IMG/VR virus record: IMGVR_UViG_3300045988_083782
Origin: a virus
DNA: 64,000 nucleotides
Strand: one strand, 5' to 3'
Position numbers and translations under genes: made by a program. Positions 7,522-64,000 of the stretch are shown piece by piece (the stretch's first letter is position 1; the number at the start of each line of letters is the position of its first letter). A model generated the notes under the pieces. It made no database searches. It worked only from the letters and a program-made list of their open reading frames with translations, and was not told where the DNA came from.

Positions 7522-8430
7522 ATGATAAATAACAATTTAATAAGTTCAAAAGCGGTTGTAGCTAAAATCATTGCTGATAATGACATGTCTGAAGATGATA
7601 TCAGAATATCTGACATCAAAGAGTGGATAGGTGAGGCAATGGAAAAGATTGGTGCTGTACAATAGCTCGAACATAAAGTAGTAGTATTACCTGTTAACTG
7701 CCATTAGACTAAGTTACCATGTGATCTATATAGATTAGACTAGGTTGCTTTTTCATTCAGCAACTCAAGCTGGTTACCTATGCGAAAGGCAACTGGCTCT
7801 TTTGGTATAAATACTTGTGGTACTTGTAATGACCCAAAGATGTTAATACAAGATGAACCACTGATTATACTAGTAAAAAACTTATACAATTTAACTAGTG
7901 ATAAAGAAGCATTAGATATACTTAATTCTTCACCTAATACTAGACAAACACTTAGTGCTTTACTTAATCAATATACTGTGCCTACTGTTAATGGTAAGTA
8001 TGTAGGTTATGATAGTAACTTTATCAGTAATGCATTACAATATACAACTAAACCGGGTTATATTATGACTAATATACCTAACGGCTTTGTTAAAATATCG
8101 TATCATGCAATACCTACTGATGACGAAAGTATGCCAATGATACCAGATAATCCTTCATACTCTGAAGCTATCTATTGGTATGTTACTATGAAGCTAGAGT
8201 TTCCTAACTATAAGACTGGTAAAACTCCTAGATATGTGTACTATGATATTAAGAACTCTTGGAACTTCTATAGGAAACAAGCATACGCAGAAGCAATGAT
8301 GCCTGGTGTAGATGAAATGCAGAGTATACAAAATAGCTGGCTTAGAATATATCCAGAGATAGACGAGCATGATACATTCTTTGATACACTTGGAGATAAA
8401 CAAATAATATACAATTAGAATAGAGTATGA
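7522..8430 (+). CDS. Virion structural protein (TAG-recoded)
   Basis: ATG 7522 and track ORF 7780-8418 are both frame 1. There are 4 in-frame TAGs. The TGA at 8428-8430 forms an ATGA overlap with the next gene. Confidence 0.7.
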
Positions 8431-11400: not shown

Positions 11401-12623
11401 TAGAACCGGGTCAGTTAGGTGCATATCATGTACAGGATAGACCATACTTCGCTTATAATCCTACTTACTCTTCACAGCCGGGTAGTAGAAAGTATATATC
11501 AGCTTCTATATATGCAGAGAATAATGTAGTTACATCTAATCGTATTGCTTGTTCTGAAGCTAAAACTAACAATGAAATACTTGACAATTGGACTAAGTTC
11601 AAATTTGCCAACTATTTAGATGTAGATAATAAGTATGGCTAGATTACTAATCTAACATCATTCAAAGATAGATTGTTCTTCTGGTAGGATACTGCACTAG
11701 GTATTGCTTCTGTAAATGAAAGATCTCTTATTCAAGATAATAATGTAGGTCAGTTAACATTAGGTACAGGCGGTATTCTTACAAGGGCTGATTATTTAAC
11801 TAATACAAATGGTTCATCTATAGTAAATGATAGAAGTATAGTACACTCTGATAACGTATTATATTGGTACGACTTTGATAAGAATGAAATATGTGCTTAC
11901 ACTGGACAAGTATCATAGATCTCTAAAGAGAAAGGTGTATAGACTTATCTTAATGAAATGTATGTGAATAAGCGTAATGTAAGCTTAGCGTTCTATGATA
12001 AGAAGTACAATGAAGTATGGTTTAAGTTCTATGACAAATCATTGATATTCAATGAACAGTTAGGTCAATTTACTTCATTCTATACATTTAATCCTCAGTG
12101 GGCTCTACCATTCTCTAATAAGATTGTAACTATTAAAGATAACTTCTACTATGTGATTAATACTCTAGATATAGATGGAATACTTCCTGAAACTAAGATT
12201 GCTAAAGTACAATTCTATGTAAACAAGGATACTCTATATACTAAAGTATTTGATAATGTATTCTTTGGTGGAGAATTCAATGACCCTAGTACAGCAGACA
12301 ATCTAACTGCTATGAATAACATAGTAACTAATATTACATTCCATACTAAGGGTCAAGAAGCTAATCCATTACCACCATGTACATATGATAGCACAGTAAA
12401 CACTGATCTTAAGTATGCATATGATTACAGAGAAGATACATATAGATTTGCTATAGGTAGAGAGAACATAAATTTGAGTGATACACAACAGATTGAGAAT
12501 AAAGCAAATGCTGGTAGATTGAGAGGTAAATGGTTACAGTGTGAGTATGTATTCGACTGTAATAATGATAAGACCTTTAAATTACCATACGTTAATACAA
12601 CATATAGATATTCACTAGTATAA
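8427..12623 (+). CDS. Large tail protein (stabilisation / tail-tubular-like), about 1398 codons, TAG-recoded
   Basis: Track ORFs 8427-9140, 9429-11249 and 11958-12623 are all frame 0. The gaps contain only TAG stops (about 10). N-terminal FTSGMNMDVD...YRYAENVR and internal DRLFFW-TAG-DTALG resemble podovirus tail stabilisation proteins, from memory. Confidence 0.8.
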
Positions 12624-49625: not shown

Positions 49626-50162
49626 TTACTCCTTCAATCCGAGTGACCGGTAATATTCGTCGTTGTTCGTTACAAGAATTTTGTTGATGTCGTCATAAGC
49701 CGAAGACCAGCCAACAATCTCTTCCAAGAGATCATCTGCTTTCTTCTTCTCGATCTTGTTCAGCTTAGTAACAACATCAGTCAGGCGATTGAGATCCCGG
49801 AAGAACGTAGTTTCCTTGGTATCTTCCATTTTCTTAATAGCAGCCGTAACGGTTTCCATAGATACTTCTTTAAACTCACACGGAGCAAGCGGGAACTGCA
49901 AGGTAGTATCACCATTCAGAGTAATAACCATACCGTTTTCATCCGGAAGTGGATCGAGTTTAGCAGAAGTAATGTCAATCATTTTGATTGAATATTTCCG
50001 TAAGGGCTTAGTAAGCCGTAAGAGACCTTCACGTACTTTGTCATTGTGACTCAGGTCCATATTGTCAGCTTCGATGCAACACAAAGTTTGACCAATAAGA
50101 TTCCAAGTAGCCAGAATAGCCCGGTACTTGTTCATGTCGAAATTAGAATTGTTAGTTGCCAT
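49626..50162 (-). CDS. Hypothetical protein
   Basis: The start is taken at MATNNSNF (50162). The track's upstream extension looks non-coding. Confidence 0.6.
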   Translation of the reverse strand: MATNNSNFDMNKYRAILATWNLIGQTLCCIEADNMDLSHNDKVREGLLRLTKPLRKYSIKMIDITSAKLDPLPDENGMVITLNGDTTLQFPLAPCEFKEVSMETVTAAIKKMEDTKETTFFRDLNRLTDVVTKLNKIEKKKADDLLEEIVGWSSAYDDINKILVTNNDEYYRSLGLKE

Positions 50163-50240
50163 AATTTTTTGTTCCTTTCTTGATTTATACCCTTTTTGAT
50201 GGGGTGGATTAATAACTAGTTTTACTTTTAAAATTCGCAT

Positions 50241-52250
50241 GTTACTCTTTTCTCTTCAATTCAGTTAGTCTGCTCAGTCTCTTAGAGCCGCTTTAAAAAA
50301 GCTATGAAAGTAGACAGATGGAATTGGTCAATTCAATGACTTAGAGTAACACTACGCATCCAAAATCTGTAAATGTTTGATAATTTTGGTAATTTCTATT
50401 GCCGTAAAAATATCGAAAACAAAAATAAGATATGTAATGTCACTGTATAATAGCTGTGACACATGCCCGGATCAGACCTTCTTTTTACTGTAGCTGATCA
50501 ATCAATACGAAACAGTTTTTTGTGCCTAGTTCATATCACTATTAGATGCAATATAAACAACTTATCATCAATTCAACGAATCTCCAAGTATATTAGCATT
50601 ACAACAATCTAAGCGATTGAGGGACTTTTTATCTAAAAGTTGCAAAACTCACAAGCTGTCCGATTTTTCAGGACACCCACTTGACCTTATCAGGGATTCT
50701 TTATTTATAGTACTCGAATACTTAGGATTTCCACCTAATCAGCCTTAATGGAGGCCTCAGCGTTCTCTTACATATAATGTTGCGCATTATACTTTACGAG
50801 TTTCTTATGTCAGCGTAACGGTTGGTACTCAAAGAGTAAGGAATTACTCAAATTAGTTCTTTACAAATTCATCTATACTCGTAAGTATAAACTTCATGCA
50901 GGTGATTTACTAACAATACTCTTTAATGCTTTAAGTTAAACATGTTCATTCTCTCCTTATTTGGTATAGCTGTTCGTTTCAGCGTAGGCACTCTCCAACG
51001 AGTTCTTACAATCCTTATGTTACCTCACATACAGGAACGCTCGTCAGGGCAATACACAGAATTGCTTCTGCTTCGTGTCGGCCCCTTATGATCTCTTGCT
51101 TCGCTTCATACTGGATGTATGCGCTGCTCACTTGAGAAAACTTAGTTAAAGATACTTTGCTTACTTTGTCTGAAATTCATACGTAGTTCCAGTCCTACGG
51201 TCTCGCATTTCCTCTTACAAATATAATCCTTATACTAATCAGATTATACACAATTCAGACTTATTGCGGCCTCAAATCGCAAGTTAAGATTATATCCCTG
51301 TTGCAAAGCACTCTAGGGTTTTATAGTGACATCACTTAACATAGTCACTCTTTGCAGTTAAATACTTCAAATCACTTTGCCCTAATGGACAATACAGTGT
51401 TGCAACTGTAAGTATGAGCTGTAGACACGCAATTTACTTCTCAGACGCTAACTCTAGGTTCACATCATTACGTATAGGTTTGGCACCTAATCCGGGTAAC
51501 CTGTCATACACACTATCTAACAACGATAGTCTTGCATATGGGCCATAGCCACTCAGCCATGTCAATTTCTAGTGCTAATTTAACTTCAAAAATTCTACCT
51601 TCAGATGTATTACTTTAAATCTACCTTGTAGACTCACTTCCAATTAAATGATTTCAATCCAACGAGGTGCTATTACTCCTCTTATTAAACTATATAGACA
51701 GTATAGTCTAATATTTCATTAGTCAACGTGATAATACAGAAACACTGTAGTAGTATATGCTTTATGCTCTTACACCTAAGTAAGTGGGCAAAGGAGGGTT
51801 TGGAGCCAATCCTTAGAACGTTAGTCAGTTCATGATTACAAACATCTTTTTTTGTGACCACTCGTGTTATCGTTCCTTCTTGATTTCATCTTTGAGTTGA
51901 TCCACGAACGATTACGGAAGTTAACGATACTCCCTGCTTTGTTTAGTCTCTGCAATCTGCTCACTGCATATCACTGCGTCTTCAGTCACCAATCCGGTTC
52001 TCACTATGGGTTATGCACGCTCTCCCATTTTCCTATTATATTCTTCATGTAGATAAGTAATCAATCTACTATAATAGGTTATCATACTATAGTTATAACT
52101 TGTAGTGGTAGCTACTTATTAAACATTTCAGTATCATGTATTACTTATAATCTATCTGCAACTGATCAGGTCTAAACAGAATGTCGTAGCATTTACGATG
52201 CCCTTCGAATGTAATTCTATAGCTCTTATATACCGCTTAATTACTCTCTA
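50241..52250. other. About 2-kb ORF-free block; candidate structured non-coding RNA locus or regulatory region
   Basis: No ORF of 60 aa or more on either strand except a weak one at 51864-52052 (+). Stops of all three kinds occur in every frame I sampled. Composition is visibly less A/T-run-rich than the flanks. Local hairpins lie at 50439-50460, 51047-51084 and 52183-52199. Confidence 0.5.
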
Positions 52251-52637
52251 TTAGCGGTCGCCGTTTCTCTTCGGGCTAAGATTTAATCCAAGTTGTGGAT
52301 TAGGAAGCGGCATAAGCCGATTAAGCAATTTTGTTGTCTTAATAGTATTTTCTACATAAACCTCCTTTTCTACTTCTTTTGTTATATACTCTAGACGTGT
52401 CTCAACATCTTTTGTTATGGTCACAGTAGCATCTGCGGATGTTTCTCCTACAGTTACTTTGTCAGTTCTGAGATCAATATTCAGAGCTAGGTTCTTTCCA
52501 TTGTTAGGTACGTCTACCACACGAGGAATAACCATTTCTCCGGCTTGAACTGCCTGACTTGGGGTAAATGGATCATATCCAATAAACCCTCCGAAAATTA
52601 CTGCAAATGCAGCAATTGCCAAATTTCTGAGCTTCAT
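52251..52637 (-). CDS. Secreted/exported small protein
   Basis: 128-aa ORF with an N-terminal signal-like MKLRNLAIAAFAVIFGGFIG. Confidence 0.65.
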   Translation of the reverse strand: MKLRNLAIAAFAVIFGGFIGYDPFTPSQAVQAGEMVIPRVVDVPNNGKNLALNIDLRTDKVTVGETSADATVTITKDVETRLEYITKEVEKEVYVENTIKTTKLLNRLMPLPNPQLGLNLSPKRNGDR

Positions 52638-54213: not shown

Positions 54214-54609
54214 TCAACTATCATCTATATAACCACATTTTTCTCTCACTGTAGGTAATCCTTCTGTTTCAGCGATAGAGTTGTCACTTTCTAATAATAT
54301 AGGCTCCTGACTCACAGAGTCTTGTTCAGCTAATTCTGCATTCCATACAACGGATGTAGAATTACTCTGTGTGGGATGATTAGAAATCTCTACTGCTACT
54401 ACAGCTTTCTCAGGAGTTTCCATTAATTTCTTAATGTGTTTTACTCCTGCACCTACAACTAAGCCTAATACTAGTAACATAATAGCTCTAGTAAAGACTT
54501 TTGGGTCCTTCATGCACATCGCGATTACATAAAGAACGACTATTGCAAAGAGCAATAATCCAACTACATTTGCCATAATTTGTAAGTATTGGTTATTTAT
54601 AATCTTCAA
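54214..54609 (-). CDS. Single-pass membrane protein downstream of the sigma factor (anti-sigma-like by position)
   Basis: 131-aa ORF overlapping the sigma gene's end by 17 nt. Has two hydrophobic segments, VVGLLLFAIVVLYVIAM and IMLLVLGLVVGAGV. Confidence 0.6.
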   Translation of the reverse strand: MKIINNQYLQIMANVVGLLLFAIVVLYVIAMCMKDPKVFTRAIMLLVLGLVVGAGVKHIKKLMETPEKAVVAVEISNHPTQSNSTSVVWNAELAEQDSVSQEPILLESDNSIAETEGLPTVREKCGYIDDS

Positions 54610-55144
54610 AAAGTTGTCTTAGTTTTGCTCTTGCCTTATTGAGACACGTTTTCACGGTTGCCTCAGGAATAGCAAGCTCTTCGGATATTTGATGGTAAGA
54701 CTTCCCATCTAGGCGAGCATAGATAAGATCCCTATACTTCTTACGAAGCAATGGAATACATTTCATAATAACTTCTACATTCTGACTTAAAATCATCTGT
54801 TCTTCAGGGCTCTTTGTATTAGAATCAAGTTGACCAGTATATTCATCATCATCAATATAGTTGTTAAGTTGCTCTTTTTTAGTTCTTCTTATATAGTCAA
54901 TTGAAGTATTAACAGCAATTGTTTTTAACCACATTTCAAATGAAATATGACTTACATAAGTTTGAAGCTTCTCGTAAACCTTTGTAAATACTACTGATGT
55001 TAAATCATCTGCTACATCACTGTTTTTAACAATGTTATAAATAGTAAACCAAATAGTTTTATTATACTTTTGATATAACTTTGAGAATGCTTTCTCAGAA
55101 CCGTCTCTAGCTTGCTCTACTAAAAGTTTTTCTTCCTCTTTCAT
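54593..55144 (-). CDS. ECF-type sigma-70 family RNA polymerase sigma factor
   Basis: Region 2-like DLTSVVFTKVYEKL...FEMWLKTIAVNTSIDYIRR. Region 4-like YRDLIYARLDGKSYHQISEELAIPEATVKTCLNKARAKLR. Confidence 0.85.
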   Translation of the reverse strand: MKEEEKLLVEQARDGSEKAFSKLYQKYNKTIWFTIYNIVKNSDVADDLTSVVFTKVYEKLQTYVSHISFEMWLKTIAVNTSIDYIRRTKKEQLNNYIDDDEYTGQLDSNTKSPEEQMILSQNVEVIMKCIPLLRKKYRDLIYARLDGKSYHQISEELAIPEATVKTCLNKARAKLRQLFEDYK

Positions 55145-57126: not shown

Positions 57127-57440
57127 TTATTAAGTTCTAATATTTTACAGGGTCGAGAGCTTACAACAACACCTAACCAATTTATTACACGCAGGGATAT
57201 GACGTGGCTTTTTACGGCATTAGCTTAGCCGTTTGACTATTCTCAAGCACTCAGGCGAGTATAGTCAGATACGAAAGTTTTGCCAGTTATTGGCTTTATT
57301 GACCTATTCATTCTCTTCTTATCGCTGTCAAAAACCATAATGCCCCAGGTTTATACCGTTCAAAGATTTAAGAACTTGAAGCACGGTATCACACTATCAA
57401 AAACTCTAGTTCTATTTCCTTAGTAGCTTTTAATAAAGCG

Positions 57441-57553
57441 TGGAGCATGAGGGGGTCGAACCCTCGTCCAAACGACGAATCAAATGACCTAACAGTCAAT
57501 GTGAATAGGCAGTTAACCAAAACTACCTACTCTAATATAAACAAATACTCTCC
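57441..57553 (-). ncRNA. tRNA-like element, 113 nt
   Basis: T-arm is GAGGG-TTCGACC-CCCTC. Acceptor is GGAGAGT/ATGCTCC (6 of 7 pairs) with discriminator A. The interior has a 7-bp TAGGTAG-TTTTGGTTAA-CTGCCTA hairpin (D-like loop with GG) and TGAC-TGTTAG-GTCA (6-nt loop). Confidence 0.35.
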
Positions 57554-58510: not shown

Positions 58511-58908
58511 ATATAGTTATTTAAACGAAATTCAAAAAGAAGACTACTCTACTTATTTCTAATACTTATTCGTAGATAACCCTTTTCCTTCTCCTGACCC
58601 TATTATAGGGTTGACCGTTGTATAGTCCATAGTACTCTAGCTCACGCTTGTGGCTTCCTTTAGGGGTTTGGTATATTTGTAGTCTTCGGGGGACTGGTTC
58701 ACCATTTACTAACATTTAGTTGAGTAAAAAACCTACAGTCTATCTGGCGGAAATCCTGTAGTTCAAAAATTGTAAACTGTAATCCGATCATTGATTGCAA
58801 TTCTGCAAAGCACTTCTACGGTCATACGGATCCATTTTACGGATCTTTTTAGTTGAACGTTTTCGTGCCTGAGCTTTCTGAGAAAGCTTTGAGCCTGGAT
58901 ATGAGTCC

Positions 58909-62393: not shown

Positions 62394-62395
62394 AG

Positions 62396-62477
62396 TGCTA
62401 GTTCAAGGATTCGAACCTCGATGGATTCCTCCACATTCTCAATGAGAATGCGCGTCTACCAATTCCGCCAAACTAGC
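62396..62477 (-). tRNA. Type II (tRNA-Leu-like) tRNA with a non-canonical anticodon loop UCAUUGA
   Basis: On the (-) strand, parsed by arm. Acceptor and linker: GCTAGTT-TG. D-arm: GCGGAATTGGTAGACGC-G. Anticodon arm: CATTC-TCATTGA-GAATG. Variable arm: TGGAGGAATCCAT. T-arm: CGAGG-TTCGAAT-CCTTG. 3' acceptor and discriminator: AACTAGC-A. The D-arm matches bacterial tRNA-Leu. Position 33 is C, and the 'anticodon' would be AUU. The arm can zip into a 7-bp helix with an AUU triloop. Confidence 0.7.
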
Positions 62478-63399: not shown

Positions 63400-64000
63400 T
63401 GTGTTGATATAATAGTTAGATACCTAAAGAAATTTGACACTTATTGTTCAGTTAGTGTCAGACTGTCAAGCACCTCATTAAGCATATCGAGGTAATAGCT
63501 TATTCCCATCTATACTTGCTTTGGTTAGTTGCTACTAAAGGATGCACTCACAGCGAACCTAACTGTGTCCTTACCATATGGTTTTACTATTATAATCTAT
63601 TAATGTGCATTTTACACCTAAAACTTAAAACTAAAGGAATTCTCTACTCTGGCATTATGACCCTAGGGATCAATGTTGTAGTAGCTAAGTATTTATGTGG
63701 ATAGTCCACAACCTTTAGATTCACATAAGAAACTGGTGCCCTCAATGTCTTGGGAAGTTATTGAGTTTTTTAGAGTGAGATACACATTAGGCAAAGCTCT
63801 CGAGTTTGTACGTGAGAGAGTACACAGATTTATAAAGGTCTTATATGCCCTTTTGACCTATAAATTCAATATAAGGCTTTGTAATTTCATCAAAAGCCTT
63901 TAGAAAACTTCCAGTATTTCACTATGACTGCATTTCACATAGTGTTACTTGAATCTCGCTCAAGTGCAAAGTTCTAATCTCGTAGAACACAATATAGACT
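63400..64000. other. ORF-poor non-coding stretch running to the window edge
   Basis: Only two weak (+) ORFs of 62 and 68 aa. Hairpins lie at 63885-63912 (AAGGCTTT/AAAGCCTT) and 63921-63948 (CACTATG/CATAGTG). Composition resembles 50241-52250. Confidence 0.4.

Follow-up and report, generated by a model that had tools for sequence, protein, structure and literature searches.

What does a phage keep in two kilobases of DNA that hold no gene? The question is raised by the block at positions 50241-52250 of a 64,000-nt stretch of viral DNA (hereafter the window), taken from the IMG/VR record IMGVR_UViG_3300045988_083782. The initial annotation, made from the letters alone, described the block as a gap in an otherwise gene-dense module and listed four options for it: a large structured non-coding RNA (ncRNA), a cluster of small RNAs, a replication origin or packaging region, or a decayed gene cluster. 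The analyses described here leave the first two options standing and speak against the other two. The block is very probably a conserved structured RNA, and we favour the view that it would be the non-coding gene for one multi-domain RNA of ~1.8 kb on the minus strand (~52258-50470).

A block with no coding capacity

The block is bounded by two genes of the minus strand, the upstream one ending at 52251 and the downstream one starting at 50240. As the initial annotation stated, the sole open reading frame (ORF) of at least 60 amino acids (aa) on either strand is one of 62 aa on the plus strand, and such a content is that of random sequence, the median of the largest ORF in 500 shuffles of the same composition being 71 aa. 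The longest stop-free run in the six frames is 67 codons, whereas other 2010-nt windows have a minimum of 95 and a median of 226, and TAA, TAG and TGA together make up ~9% of the codons in each of the three minus-strand frames. The earlier remark that no single stop reassignment rescues a frame also holds: with one stop read as sense the longest run is 105 codons for TAG, 85 for TGA and 108 for TAA, the first two falling below the minimum of every other 2-kb window and the third far below the median of 277. The autocorrelation of mismatches decays smoothly across the block, with clustered substitutions and no signal at lags 3, 6 and 9, whereas the adjacent gene has peaks at exactly these lags; the lack of three-base periodicity excludes a recoded or decayed gene. 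The block is non-coding. We judge the 62-aa frame, which is of chance-level size, to be spurious:

51864..52052, plus strand: 62-aa ORF, antisense to the domain D1 described below

ORFs have been called inside the block in three GenBank genomes, namely cr114_1 (53 aa, L002 4981-5142), cr10_1 (61 aa, L111 9613-9798) and cr7_1 (160 aa on the opposite strand, L116 9879-10361). They are not conserved in other lineages and can be flagged as probably spurious.

Conservation across the Suoliviridae

By blastn, the source of the window is a crAss-like phage belonging to the Suoliviridae, as the initial annotation had supposed in pointing to crAss-like genomes. Among deposited genomes, cr115_1 and cr114_1 (Uncouvirinae) come closest, with ~78% identity in the best-conserved genes, and the DNA that matches the block in them is an unannotated gap of ~2 kb between the same two flanking genes. 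Further loci were gathered with three probes: the 497-aa protein encoded beside the block, a DNA motif that is conserved, and the sigma factor encoded nearby. An ORF-free gap was found at the same syntenic place in all 37 loci of a first set and in all 80 further loci from IMG/VR, as well as in 12 GenBank genomes from the Uncouvirinae, Boorivirinae, Loutivirinae, Bearivirinae and Oafivirinae; the sample exceeds 110 loci, which clustering at 90% identity condenses to 29 lineages. In these lineages the block measures 1920-2514 nt (median 2111 nt), and none has an ORF, intron or endonuclease inserted between its domains. The gene order is a sigma factor, genes of ~125, ~480 and ~130 aa, the gap, and two genes of ~185 aa. 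The alignment to crAss-like relatives that the initial annotation had recommended returned a conserved gap with covariation and no intact coding gene at the syntenic position. Judged from these genomes, the block is a hallmark of all five Suoliviridae subfamilies, its position, size and domain order being fixed.

The block is also better conserved than its surroundings. It is 79% identical between L001 and L002 and 59% identical between the window and L001, as compared to 63% and 49%, respectively, for the adjacent 497-aa gene; among four lineages whose flanking proteins are ~33% identical, 42% of the block columns are invariant. By this measure, purifying selection acts more strongly on the block than on the genes beside it. 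Such constraint bears on the idea that the block is decayed or recoded coding DNA or an ORF-less group I or group II intron. The Suoliviridae are indeed known for stop-codon reassignment and many introns (PMC7886860), and group I introns lie a few kb away in relatives. However, all three stops are dense in all frames, codon periodicity is missing, and the constraint exceeds that of real genes in every one of the 29 lineages, which disposes of the decayed gene cluster. The block matches no core of a group I or group II intron and no intron model even at E <= 10, and the flanking genes are complete in every relative, with their own stop and ATG. As far as sequence analysis goes this explanation is already refuted, and we give it practically no weight.

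Scanning 185,579 genomes of bacteria and archaea for the motif yielded 3 chance matches, all in GC-rich bacteria and all rejected by the covariance model R1 introduced below. The block thus appears to be confined to phages of one family and absent from cellular genomes.

About 100 nt in the 3' part of the block are near-identical between L042 (~7990-8100, Uncouvirinae-like) and L110 (~11540-11650, cr4_1, Loutivirinae), the remainder of the block being ~46% identical between L042 and cr4_1. This local near-identity suggests that RNA modules have been recombined between subfamilies.

A fold specific for the minus strand

We folded the whole block with RNAalifold on an alignment of the six closest lineages, using 24 column shuffles as the null; the alignments in this work are sequence-based, except the model-based alignment A5. 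In the minus (sense) orientation the consensus reaches -587 kcal/mol with 166 pairs that carry compensatory double changes (z = -20), as opposed to -508 kcal/mol and 118 such pairs (z = -11.7) in the plus (antisense) orientation, and to -396 +/- 9.6 kcal/mol and 59.5 +/- 7 pairs (maximum 75) in the shuffles. The bias of the fold toward the minus strand thus amounts to ~80 kcal/mol, and G-U pairs are frequent. In sliding windows z ranges from -4 to -6.6 over block positions 0 to ~1780 (52250-50470 of the window), and here the sense strand scores as well as the antisense strand or better; flanking coding controls treated in the same way give z of 0 to -2.9, and the final 230-330 nt of the block, with z of -2 to -3.5, are no better than these controls. 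With strict cut-offs (four or more pairs, of which two or more are compensatory, and no more than 10% of cells unpaired) 25 helices are retained, spread over 52078-50487, and even the poorly conserved linkers hold covarying helices and significant z.

Compensatory changes are above the controls and stronger on one strand, as in a conserved structured RNA. On these alignments, the RNA folds on the minus strand, which is also that of the flanking genes, with dozens of compensated helices, at least one pseudoknot, and the invariant loop or junction motifs GAGAGCGUG, GAGAACCG, AAGACGC, AGCAG and AAGUGGGUG. Structured RNA, in the form of either a large ncRNA or a cluster of small RNAs as listed in the initial annotation, is backed by conservation above that of the flanking genes, by the absence of periodicity, by strand-specific covariation and by the family-wide match to a model described in the next section. 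The whole region extends as follows:

50470..52258, minus strand: structured RNA region of ~1.8 kb, from the hairpin that straddles the upstream stop codon to the last well-supported helices

The same strand asymmetry bears on the proposal of a DNA-level element with hairpins formed in DNA, such as an origin of replication or a site for packaging or recombination. The location would suit it, the block being in the replication/early module with DNA polymerase and helicase genes 3-8 kb away, and so would a conserved palindrome of 10-12 bp, AACATGUUUA. On the other hand, G-U pairs favour one strand and one strand folds better, the closest relative lacks the palindrome, and neither iterons nor tandem structures nor notable repeats were found, the short two-copy repeats that occur being at chance level. 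The GC skew is negative and changes neither sign nor slope across the block, and there is no AT-rich unwinding region: GC content is 0.34-0.40, within the range of the flanks (0.30-0.46), so that the distinct composition noted in the initial annotation is not borne out. We regard a DNA-level element as very improbable, and even taken together the DNA-level and coding readings have but a slim chance of being correct.

The palindrome (AACATGUUUA in the RNA sense, ~50948-50937) occurs in many lineages, including the distant Oafivirinae. At ~50937-50960 of the minus strand it appears as GAACATGTTTAAC, preceded by the Shine-Dalgarno-like AAGGAGAG. For the palindrome AACATGTTTA and the Shine-Dalgarno-like AAGGAGAG we considered roles in dimerisation, in protein binding or as a mini-ORF, and rejected all three: the mini-ORF lacks conservation, and the closest relative, L123, has other sequence in place of the entire segment, so neither the palindrome nor AAGGAGAG is essential.

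The 5' edge and domain D1

The 5' part of the RNA contains the following elements:

52232..52258, minus strand: 5' hairpin ACCGC/GCGGU with covarying arms, followed by conserved GGUAUAUAAGAGCUAUA
52189..52201, minus strand: hairpin GCAU-CGUAA-AUGC with conserved CGUAA/CGUAU loop and covarying stems
51908..52092, minus strand: D1, the most conserved 5' domain, described by covariance model R1
52078-52071 / 52039-52032, minus strand: D1 helix A, with a nested hairpin
52027-52024 / 52010-52007, minus strand: D1 helix B, UGGG / CCCA
Further D1 hairpins, minus strand: GAGAACCG-NNUGGUG; one with an AGCAG loop; GGGAGU/ACUUCC
51995..52002, minus strand: GAGAACCG, near-invariant signature of the family in the 29-lineage comparison
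51976..52020, minus strand: pseudoknot between GCGU in the loop of helix B (52020-52017) and ACGC downstream of the GAGAACCG hairpin (51979-51976)

The first hairpin carries in its loop the TAA stop codon (52253-52251) of the upstream 128-aa gene, and its arms differ between lineages (ACCGC/GCGGU, ACCGU/ACGGU, UCGCA/UGCGA, CGCGC/GCGCG, AGCGG/CCGCU, AGUGG/CCACU). The 19-nt motif that follows occurs once in the window. The hairpin at 52201-52189, which the initial annotation had placed at 52183-52199, likewise covaries, with stems AGCAA/UUGCU, GACAA/UUGUC, CUGG/CCAG and CUAG/CUAG in other lineages. The signature GAGAACCG is exact in 25 of the 29 lineages and has one change in the other four, and it always lies within the first 400 nt of the block.

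For R1, the structure of D1 was drawn by hand on an alignment of 14 lineages; it comprises 181 positions and 39 pairs. In 28 of 29 lineages the model finds a single match per locus, with the position and orientation expected, and it finds nothing else in 416 kb. When applied to further loci it matched 79 of 80, while none of the three bacterial loci with the chance motif was matched, which brings the total to one match per genome in 107 of 109 loci. In the alignment fitted to R1, 88.8% of the cells of D1 are paired, compared to 64.8 +/- 1.0% after shuffling (0 of 500 shuffles reach the observed value); 36 of the 39 pairs are changed on both sides (26.2 +/- 1.9 shuffled), 237 cells have a double change (73 shuffled), and the covariation score is 0.527, as against 0.170 for shuffled columns and 0.04-0.07 when the partners are slid. 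The covarying helices of D1 recur in an independent MAFFT alignment of all 29 lineages. In the pseudoknot, the loop GAGAGCGUG pairs with AAGACGC further on, and 89 of 89 cells are paired; one pair covaries, being CG in 18, AU in 3 and UA in 1 sequence of the model alignment and CG in 20, AU in 3, GC in 3 and UA in 2 of the independent MAFFT alignment.

Domains D2-D4 and the 3' tail

Downstream of D1 three further domains and a tail can be delineated:

51410..51565, minus strand: D2, hairpin CAUGGCU-GAGU-GGCUAUG, an enclosing helix, and hairpin UAGGU-GCCAA-ACCUA
50984..51085, minus strand: D3, closing helix GGGGCC/GUGCCUAC, inner hairpins, and helix CUGACGAG/CUCGUUGG
50722..50825, minus strand: part of D4 with hairpin UUAGGUGGAAAUCCUAA, 81-92% identical to other subfamilies
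50657..50682, minus strand: D4 core, AAGUGGGUG, covarying hairpin UGUCC...GGACA, and CAGCU
50241..50469, minus strand: weakly structured tail

In the RNAalifold consensus of D2 (10 lineages from at least 2 subfamilies) 7 of 20 pairs have double changes (e.g. UA 6 / CG 4, or AU 8 / GC 2), and G-U pairs render the fold strand-specific. In D3, which is followed by conserved GCUG-AAACGAA-CAGC, the closing helix has 4 of 6 pairs compensatory and 0 of 36 cells unpaired, and the inner helix has 6 of 9 pairs compensatory; the hairpin that the initial annotation had drawn at 51047-51084 proves to lie inside this covarying domain. The string CUGACGAG (~51048) had been considered as a hammerhead core and was rejected, as it is one arm of a covarying helix.

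In D4, the distance from GAGAACCG to the downstream AAGUGGGUG is 1090-1361 nt in lineages of the Loutivirinae and Oafivirinae and in those that are Uncouvirinae-like or Bearivirinae-like, and the arms of the adjacent hairpin vary as GUCC/GGAC, GUCU/AGAC, GCUG/CAGC, GUUUU/AAAAC, GCUU/AAGC and ACA/UGU. The segment 50722-50825 is similar enough to be matched by blastn in cr6_1, cr4_1 and cr53_1 (Loutivirinae, Bearivirinae; E = 1e-10 to 2e-12), and its helices 50738-50722 and 50756-50741 have compensatory changes. The tail is probably a spacer, a promoter or the 5' untranslated region (UTR) of the downstream 204-aa gene. It contains one small conserved hairpin, GCUUU-UUU-AAAGC (~50302-50290), which covaries with GCUUA-UAA-UAAGC in L009. 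A third hairpin of the initial annotation, at 50439-50460, is indeed a predicted helix, but weaker than the two mentioned above.

Two motifs are repeated within the RNA: the hairpin module GAUUAGGUG-N5-CCUA at 51475-51492 and 50723-50740 of the minus strand, 752 nt apart, and the motif AAGUAAUACAU at ~52146 and ~51615.

One RNA or several?

We propose that the block specifies a single large RNA, and estimate the probability of this reading as about 0.6. The fixed position and size and the constant order of D1-D4, with no insertion in 29 lineages, argue for one unit; the small RNAs encoded upstream, by contrast, vary in kind and order between relatives. The transcript would probably be made by read-through from the upstream sigma-factor operon: as the upstream gene terminates inside the first hairpin, with its stop codon in the loop, and a promoter could not be detected, reading on would be the simplest way to produce the RNA. 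The RNA would fold while being transcribed, forming four or more domains (D1-D4), each of 100-300 nt; it would presumably be expressed alongside the early/replication-side genes, and by analogy with GOLLD and ROOL, discussed below, would act in trans during infection as a shaped RNA. It might then be a scaffold, the core of a ribonucleoprotein or a catalyst, and not a partner for base-pairing with targets.

Several observations weigh against this reading. Scans for sigma-70-type and for Bacteroides -33/-7 promoters remained at chance level, with none in the block, and no terminator was detected for it. Sequence conservation is weak at block positions 450-650, 1350-1500 and beyond 1750. The supported helices are mostly local, the domain-closing ones spanning ~100-240 nt, and a covariation scan of all pairs in 41 sequences found 6 stacks with spans of at least 300 nt, compared to 4 in the parallel-strand control; with no excess of long-range helices, nothing physically ties the domains into one molecule, albeit the scan is crude, and even among the known local helices few were recovered in the MAFFT alignment. 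The apparent exchange of the 3' part between subfamilies hints at modularity. Finally, any function is conjectural, and the neighbouring proteins gave no clue to it.

Two candidates that arose in this context were discarded. A 714-nt helix predicted by RNAalifold (51201-51195 / 50493-50487) competes with the better local covarying hairpin CGUAG/CUACG, and the 5' motif GCGGTATATAAGAGCTATA, considered as a recurring promoter, occurs just once in the window.

The short range of the supported helices and closures (mostly <= ~240 nt) and the missing excess of long-range stacks would agree with an island of 4-8 independent structured RNAs of 100-300 nt each, co-transcribed and perhaps processed, in the manner of the RAGATH, Hatchet and tmRNA-like RNAs encoded a few kb upstream. 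Poorly conserved linkers separating conserved domains would fit this arrangement, as would the apparent 3' module exchange and the many separate small structured RNAs that the same phages hold nearby. Yet 29 lineages keep the position, the domain order and the length of the block and have nothing inserted between the domains; the linkers themselves show covarying helices and significant z; and the block contains no self-cleaving ribozyme or other known processing element. We consider an RNA island less probable than a single RNA, but by no means remote.

It is also conceivable that the block is a giant cis-acting leader or trailer, either the 3' UTR of the sigma-factor operon or the 5' leader of the two downstream genes. 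Such a role would agree with the overlap between the first hairpin and the upstream stop codon, with the failure to find a promoter belonging to the block, and with the weak structure of the last 230 nt before the downstream gene. Nonetheless, the block is better conserved than the genes that it would regulate, and 1.8 kb with ~80 helices, a pseudoknot and invariant loops is far beyond any bacterial or phage cis-regulator known to us. This possibility appears improbable.

Relationship to known RNAs

A scan of the region 49900-52600 of the window against Rfam 15 at E <= 10 found no family that matches the block, GOLLD, ROOL, introns and ribozymes included, and the same holds for 13 relatives, none of which has a match in the block at the gathering score (ten genomes) or at E <= 0.5 (five genomes). 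In particular, there is no match in the block to models of the self-cleaving ribozymes and RAGATH RNAs (hatchet, hammerhead, twister, pistol, RAGATH-1 to -22). The same scans detected, a few kb upstream, RAGATH-7, -9, -20 and -22, Hatchet, RAGATH-1-hammerhead, group I introns, permuted tmRNA and tRNAs. Since the block is without matches while these nearby RNAs are detected, it is not GOLLD, ROOL or a member of any intron or ribozyme class; the Rfam comparison suggested in the initial annotation with GOLLD, ROOL and the introns in mind thus came out negative. A weak match to Parabacteroides-1 (19 bits, E = 1.6) was dismissed as a shared UACG-type hairpin.

Large intricate RNAs are rare, and those that are understood serve fundamental functions (the ribosome, RNase P, introns, tmRNA). 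The orphan ones, such as GOLLD, ROOL, OLE and raiA, have been a puzzle for a long time. GOLLD has ~800 nt and ROOL ~580 nt. The RNA of the block would be roughly twice the size of the orphan large RNAs or more, GOLLD included, and, to our knowledge, no structured RNA of bacteria or phages outside the ribosome would be larger. The RNA resembles GOLLD and ROOL in being phage-encoded and very large, with many helices, conserved loops and junctions, a pseudoknot and no obvious protein partner. However, it is found in Crassvirales that infect Bacteroidota, whereas GOLLD and ROOL are found in phages of Lactobacillales or of rumen bacteria. GOLLD often lies beside tRNA genes; tRNAs are found 1.3-1.5 kb downstream of the block in cr115_1, cr114_1 and cr4_1, but no tRNA gene lies near the block in the window itself. 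GOLLD and ROOL, the large ornate RNAs of phages and prophages, have been seen by cryo-electron microscopy (cryo-EM) to form RNA-only cages (PMC12286853).

The RAGATH and Hatchet RNAs share with the block the genomes, the strand and the early/replication-side module, and were likewise found by covariation, their functions being mostly unassigned (PMC5737381). They differ in being 70-210 nt long, present in Rfam, and variable in presence and order, whereas the block is about ten times larger and its position is invariant. With respect to the classical large RNAs (ribosomal RNA, RNase P RNA, tmRNA, introns), the block is comparable to 16S ribosomal RNA in size class and density of helices, and is multi-domain and locally closed; it differs in having no covariance-model match and no exon context, and in being restricted to one phage family.

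We found no earlier description of this RNA. It is unannotated in the genome records of relatives that we inspected. The covariation screen of phage intergenic regions in IMG/VR by Fremin et al. 2023 reported 10,006 motifs of 29-151 nt (PMC10690425); the paper mentions neither crAss-like phages nor an element of kilobase size, and pieces of the block may be among those motifs. Within an incomplete coverage of the literature, Yutin 2021, which deals with oddities of crAss-like genomes, a 2023 review of the Crassvirales (PMC10136315) and Weinberg 2017 contain no description of it, nor do the titles and abstract openings of the top-ranked papers that name the Suoliviridae. So far as we could find, then, the RNA is undescribed; it belongs to no Rfam family and would represent a very large structured RNA of phages that forms a class of its own, or else a tightly linked set of RNAs.

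It is attractive to go further and regard the block as one ~1.8-kb RNA with a single defined architecture, a universal and exclusive hallmark of the Suoliviridae, and an RNA machine of an undescribed kind, be it catalytic, self-assembling or the core of a phage-specific ribonucleoprotein. We hold this full proposal to be tentative, with somewhat less than an even chance of being correct. If true, it would place such a machine in a phage family that ranks among the most abundant in the human gut, where the share of the Suoliviridae in viral DNA is sizeable (13-18% of crAss-like reads; PMC7886860). R1 provides an easy sequence marker for the family, and the RNA is a well-sampled new target for structural work on large RNAs and for studies of RNA roles in phage infection.

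Neighbouring genes and RNAs

The genes and RNAs around the block are listed below in order of position:

49626..50240, minus strand: 204-aa gene, no known family, followed by a 178-aa gene
52251..52637, minus strand: 128-aa gene, no known family, last of the run sigma factor, 131 aa, 497 aa, 128 aa
52649-54142, minus strand: gene of the 497-aa protein, the first ~150 residues of which are rich in K/E/P/A and predicted to be disordered
54593-55144, minus strand: ECF-type sigma factor gene with Sigma70 r2 and r4 domains
58537-58697, minus strand: RAGATH-9 RNA, above the Rfam gathering score
59827-59966, minus strand: Hatchet ribozyme, above the Rfam gathering score
63435-63633, minus strand: RAGATH-7 RNA, above the Rfam gathering score

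Among the neighbouring proteins, comparison with Pfam and PHROGs identified nothing but the ECF-type sigma factor, the gene of which, in all the genomes of Suoliviridae that were examined, is conserved at a place three genes upstream of the block; 394 stretches in IMG/VR encode a relative of it. The two downstream proteins of 204 and 178 aa are not paralogues. The 497-aa protein has no Pfam or PHROG family, its AlphaFold model is poor (pLDDT 56.7), and Foldseek found nothing in the PDB at E <= 0.001; that its basic, lysine-rich tail might bind nucleic acid is pure speculation.

The RAGATH-7 RNA accounts for the stretch beginning at 63400 that had appeared to the initial annotation to be similar to the block. 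Relatives carry other combinations of RNAs in the same region, including RAGATH-20, -22, -7-assoc, RAGATH-1-hammerhead and group I introns. A tRNA gene at 62395-62477 of the minus strand scores 45 bits in Rfam, and ARAGORN reads it as tRNA-Asn with the unusual anticodon ATT. In the ORF-poor segment 56168-58010, ARAGORN predicts a permuted tmRNA-like gene (57152-57532, minus strand) with the tag GKTFVSDYTRLSA; it is below the gathering score of Rfam in the window, and the syntenic spot in L111, L116, L117 and L118 matches the Rfam family tmRNA_permuted and is annotated as tmRNA in GenBank.

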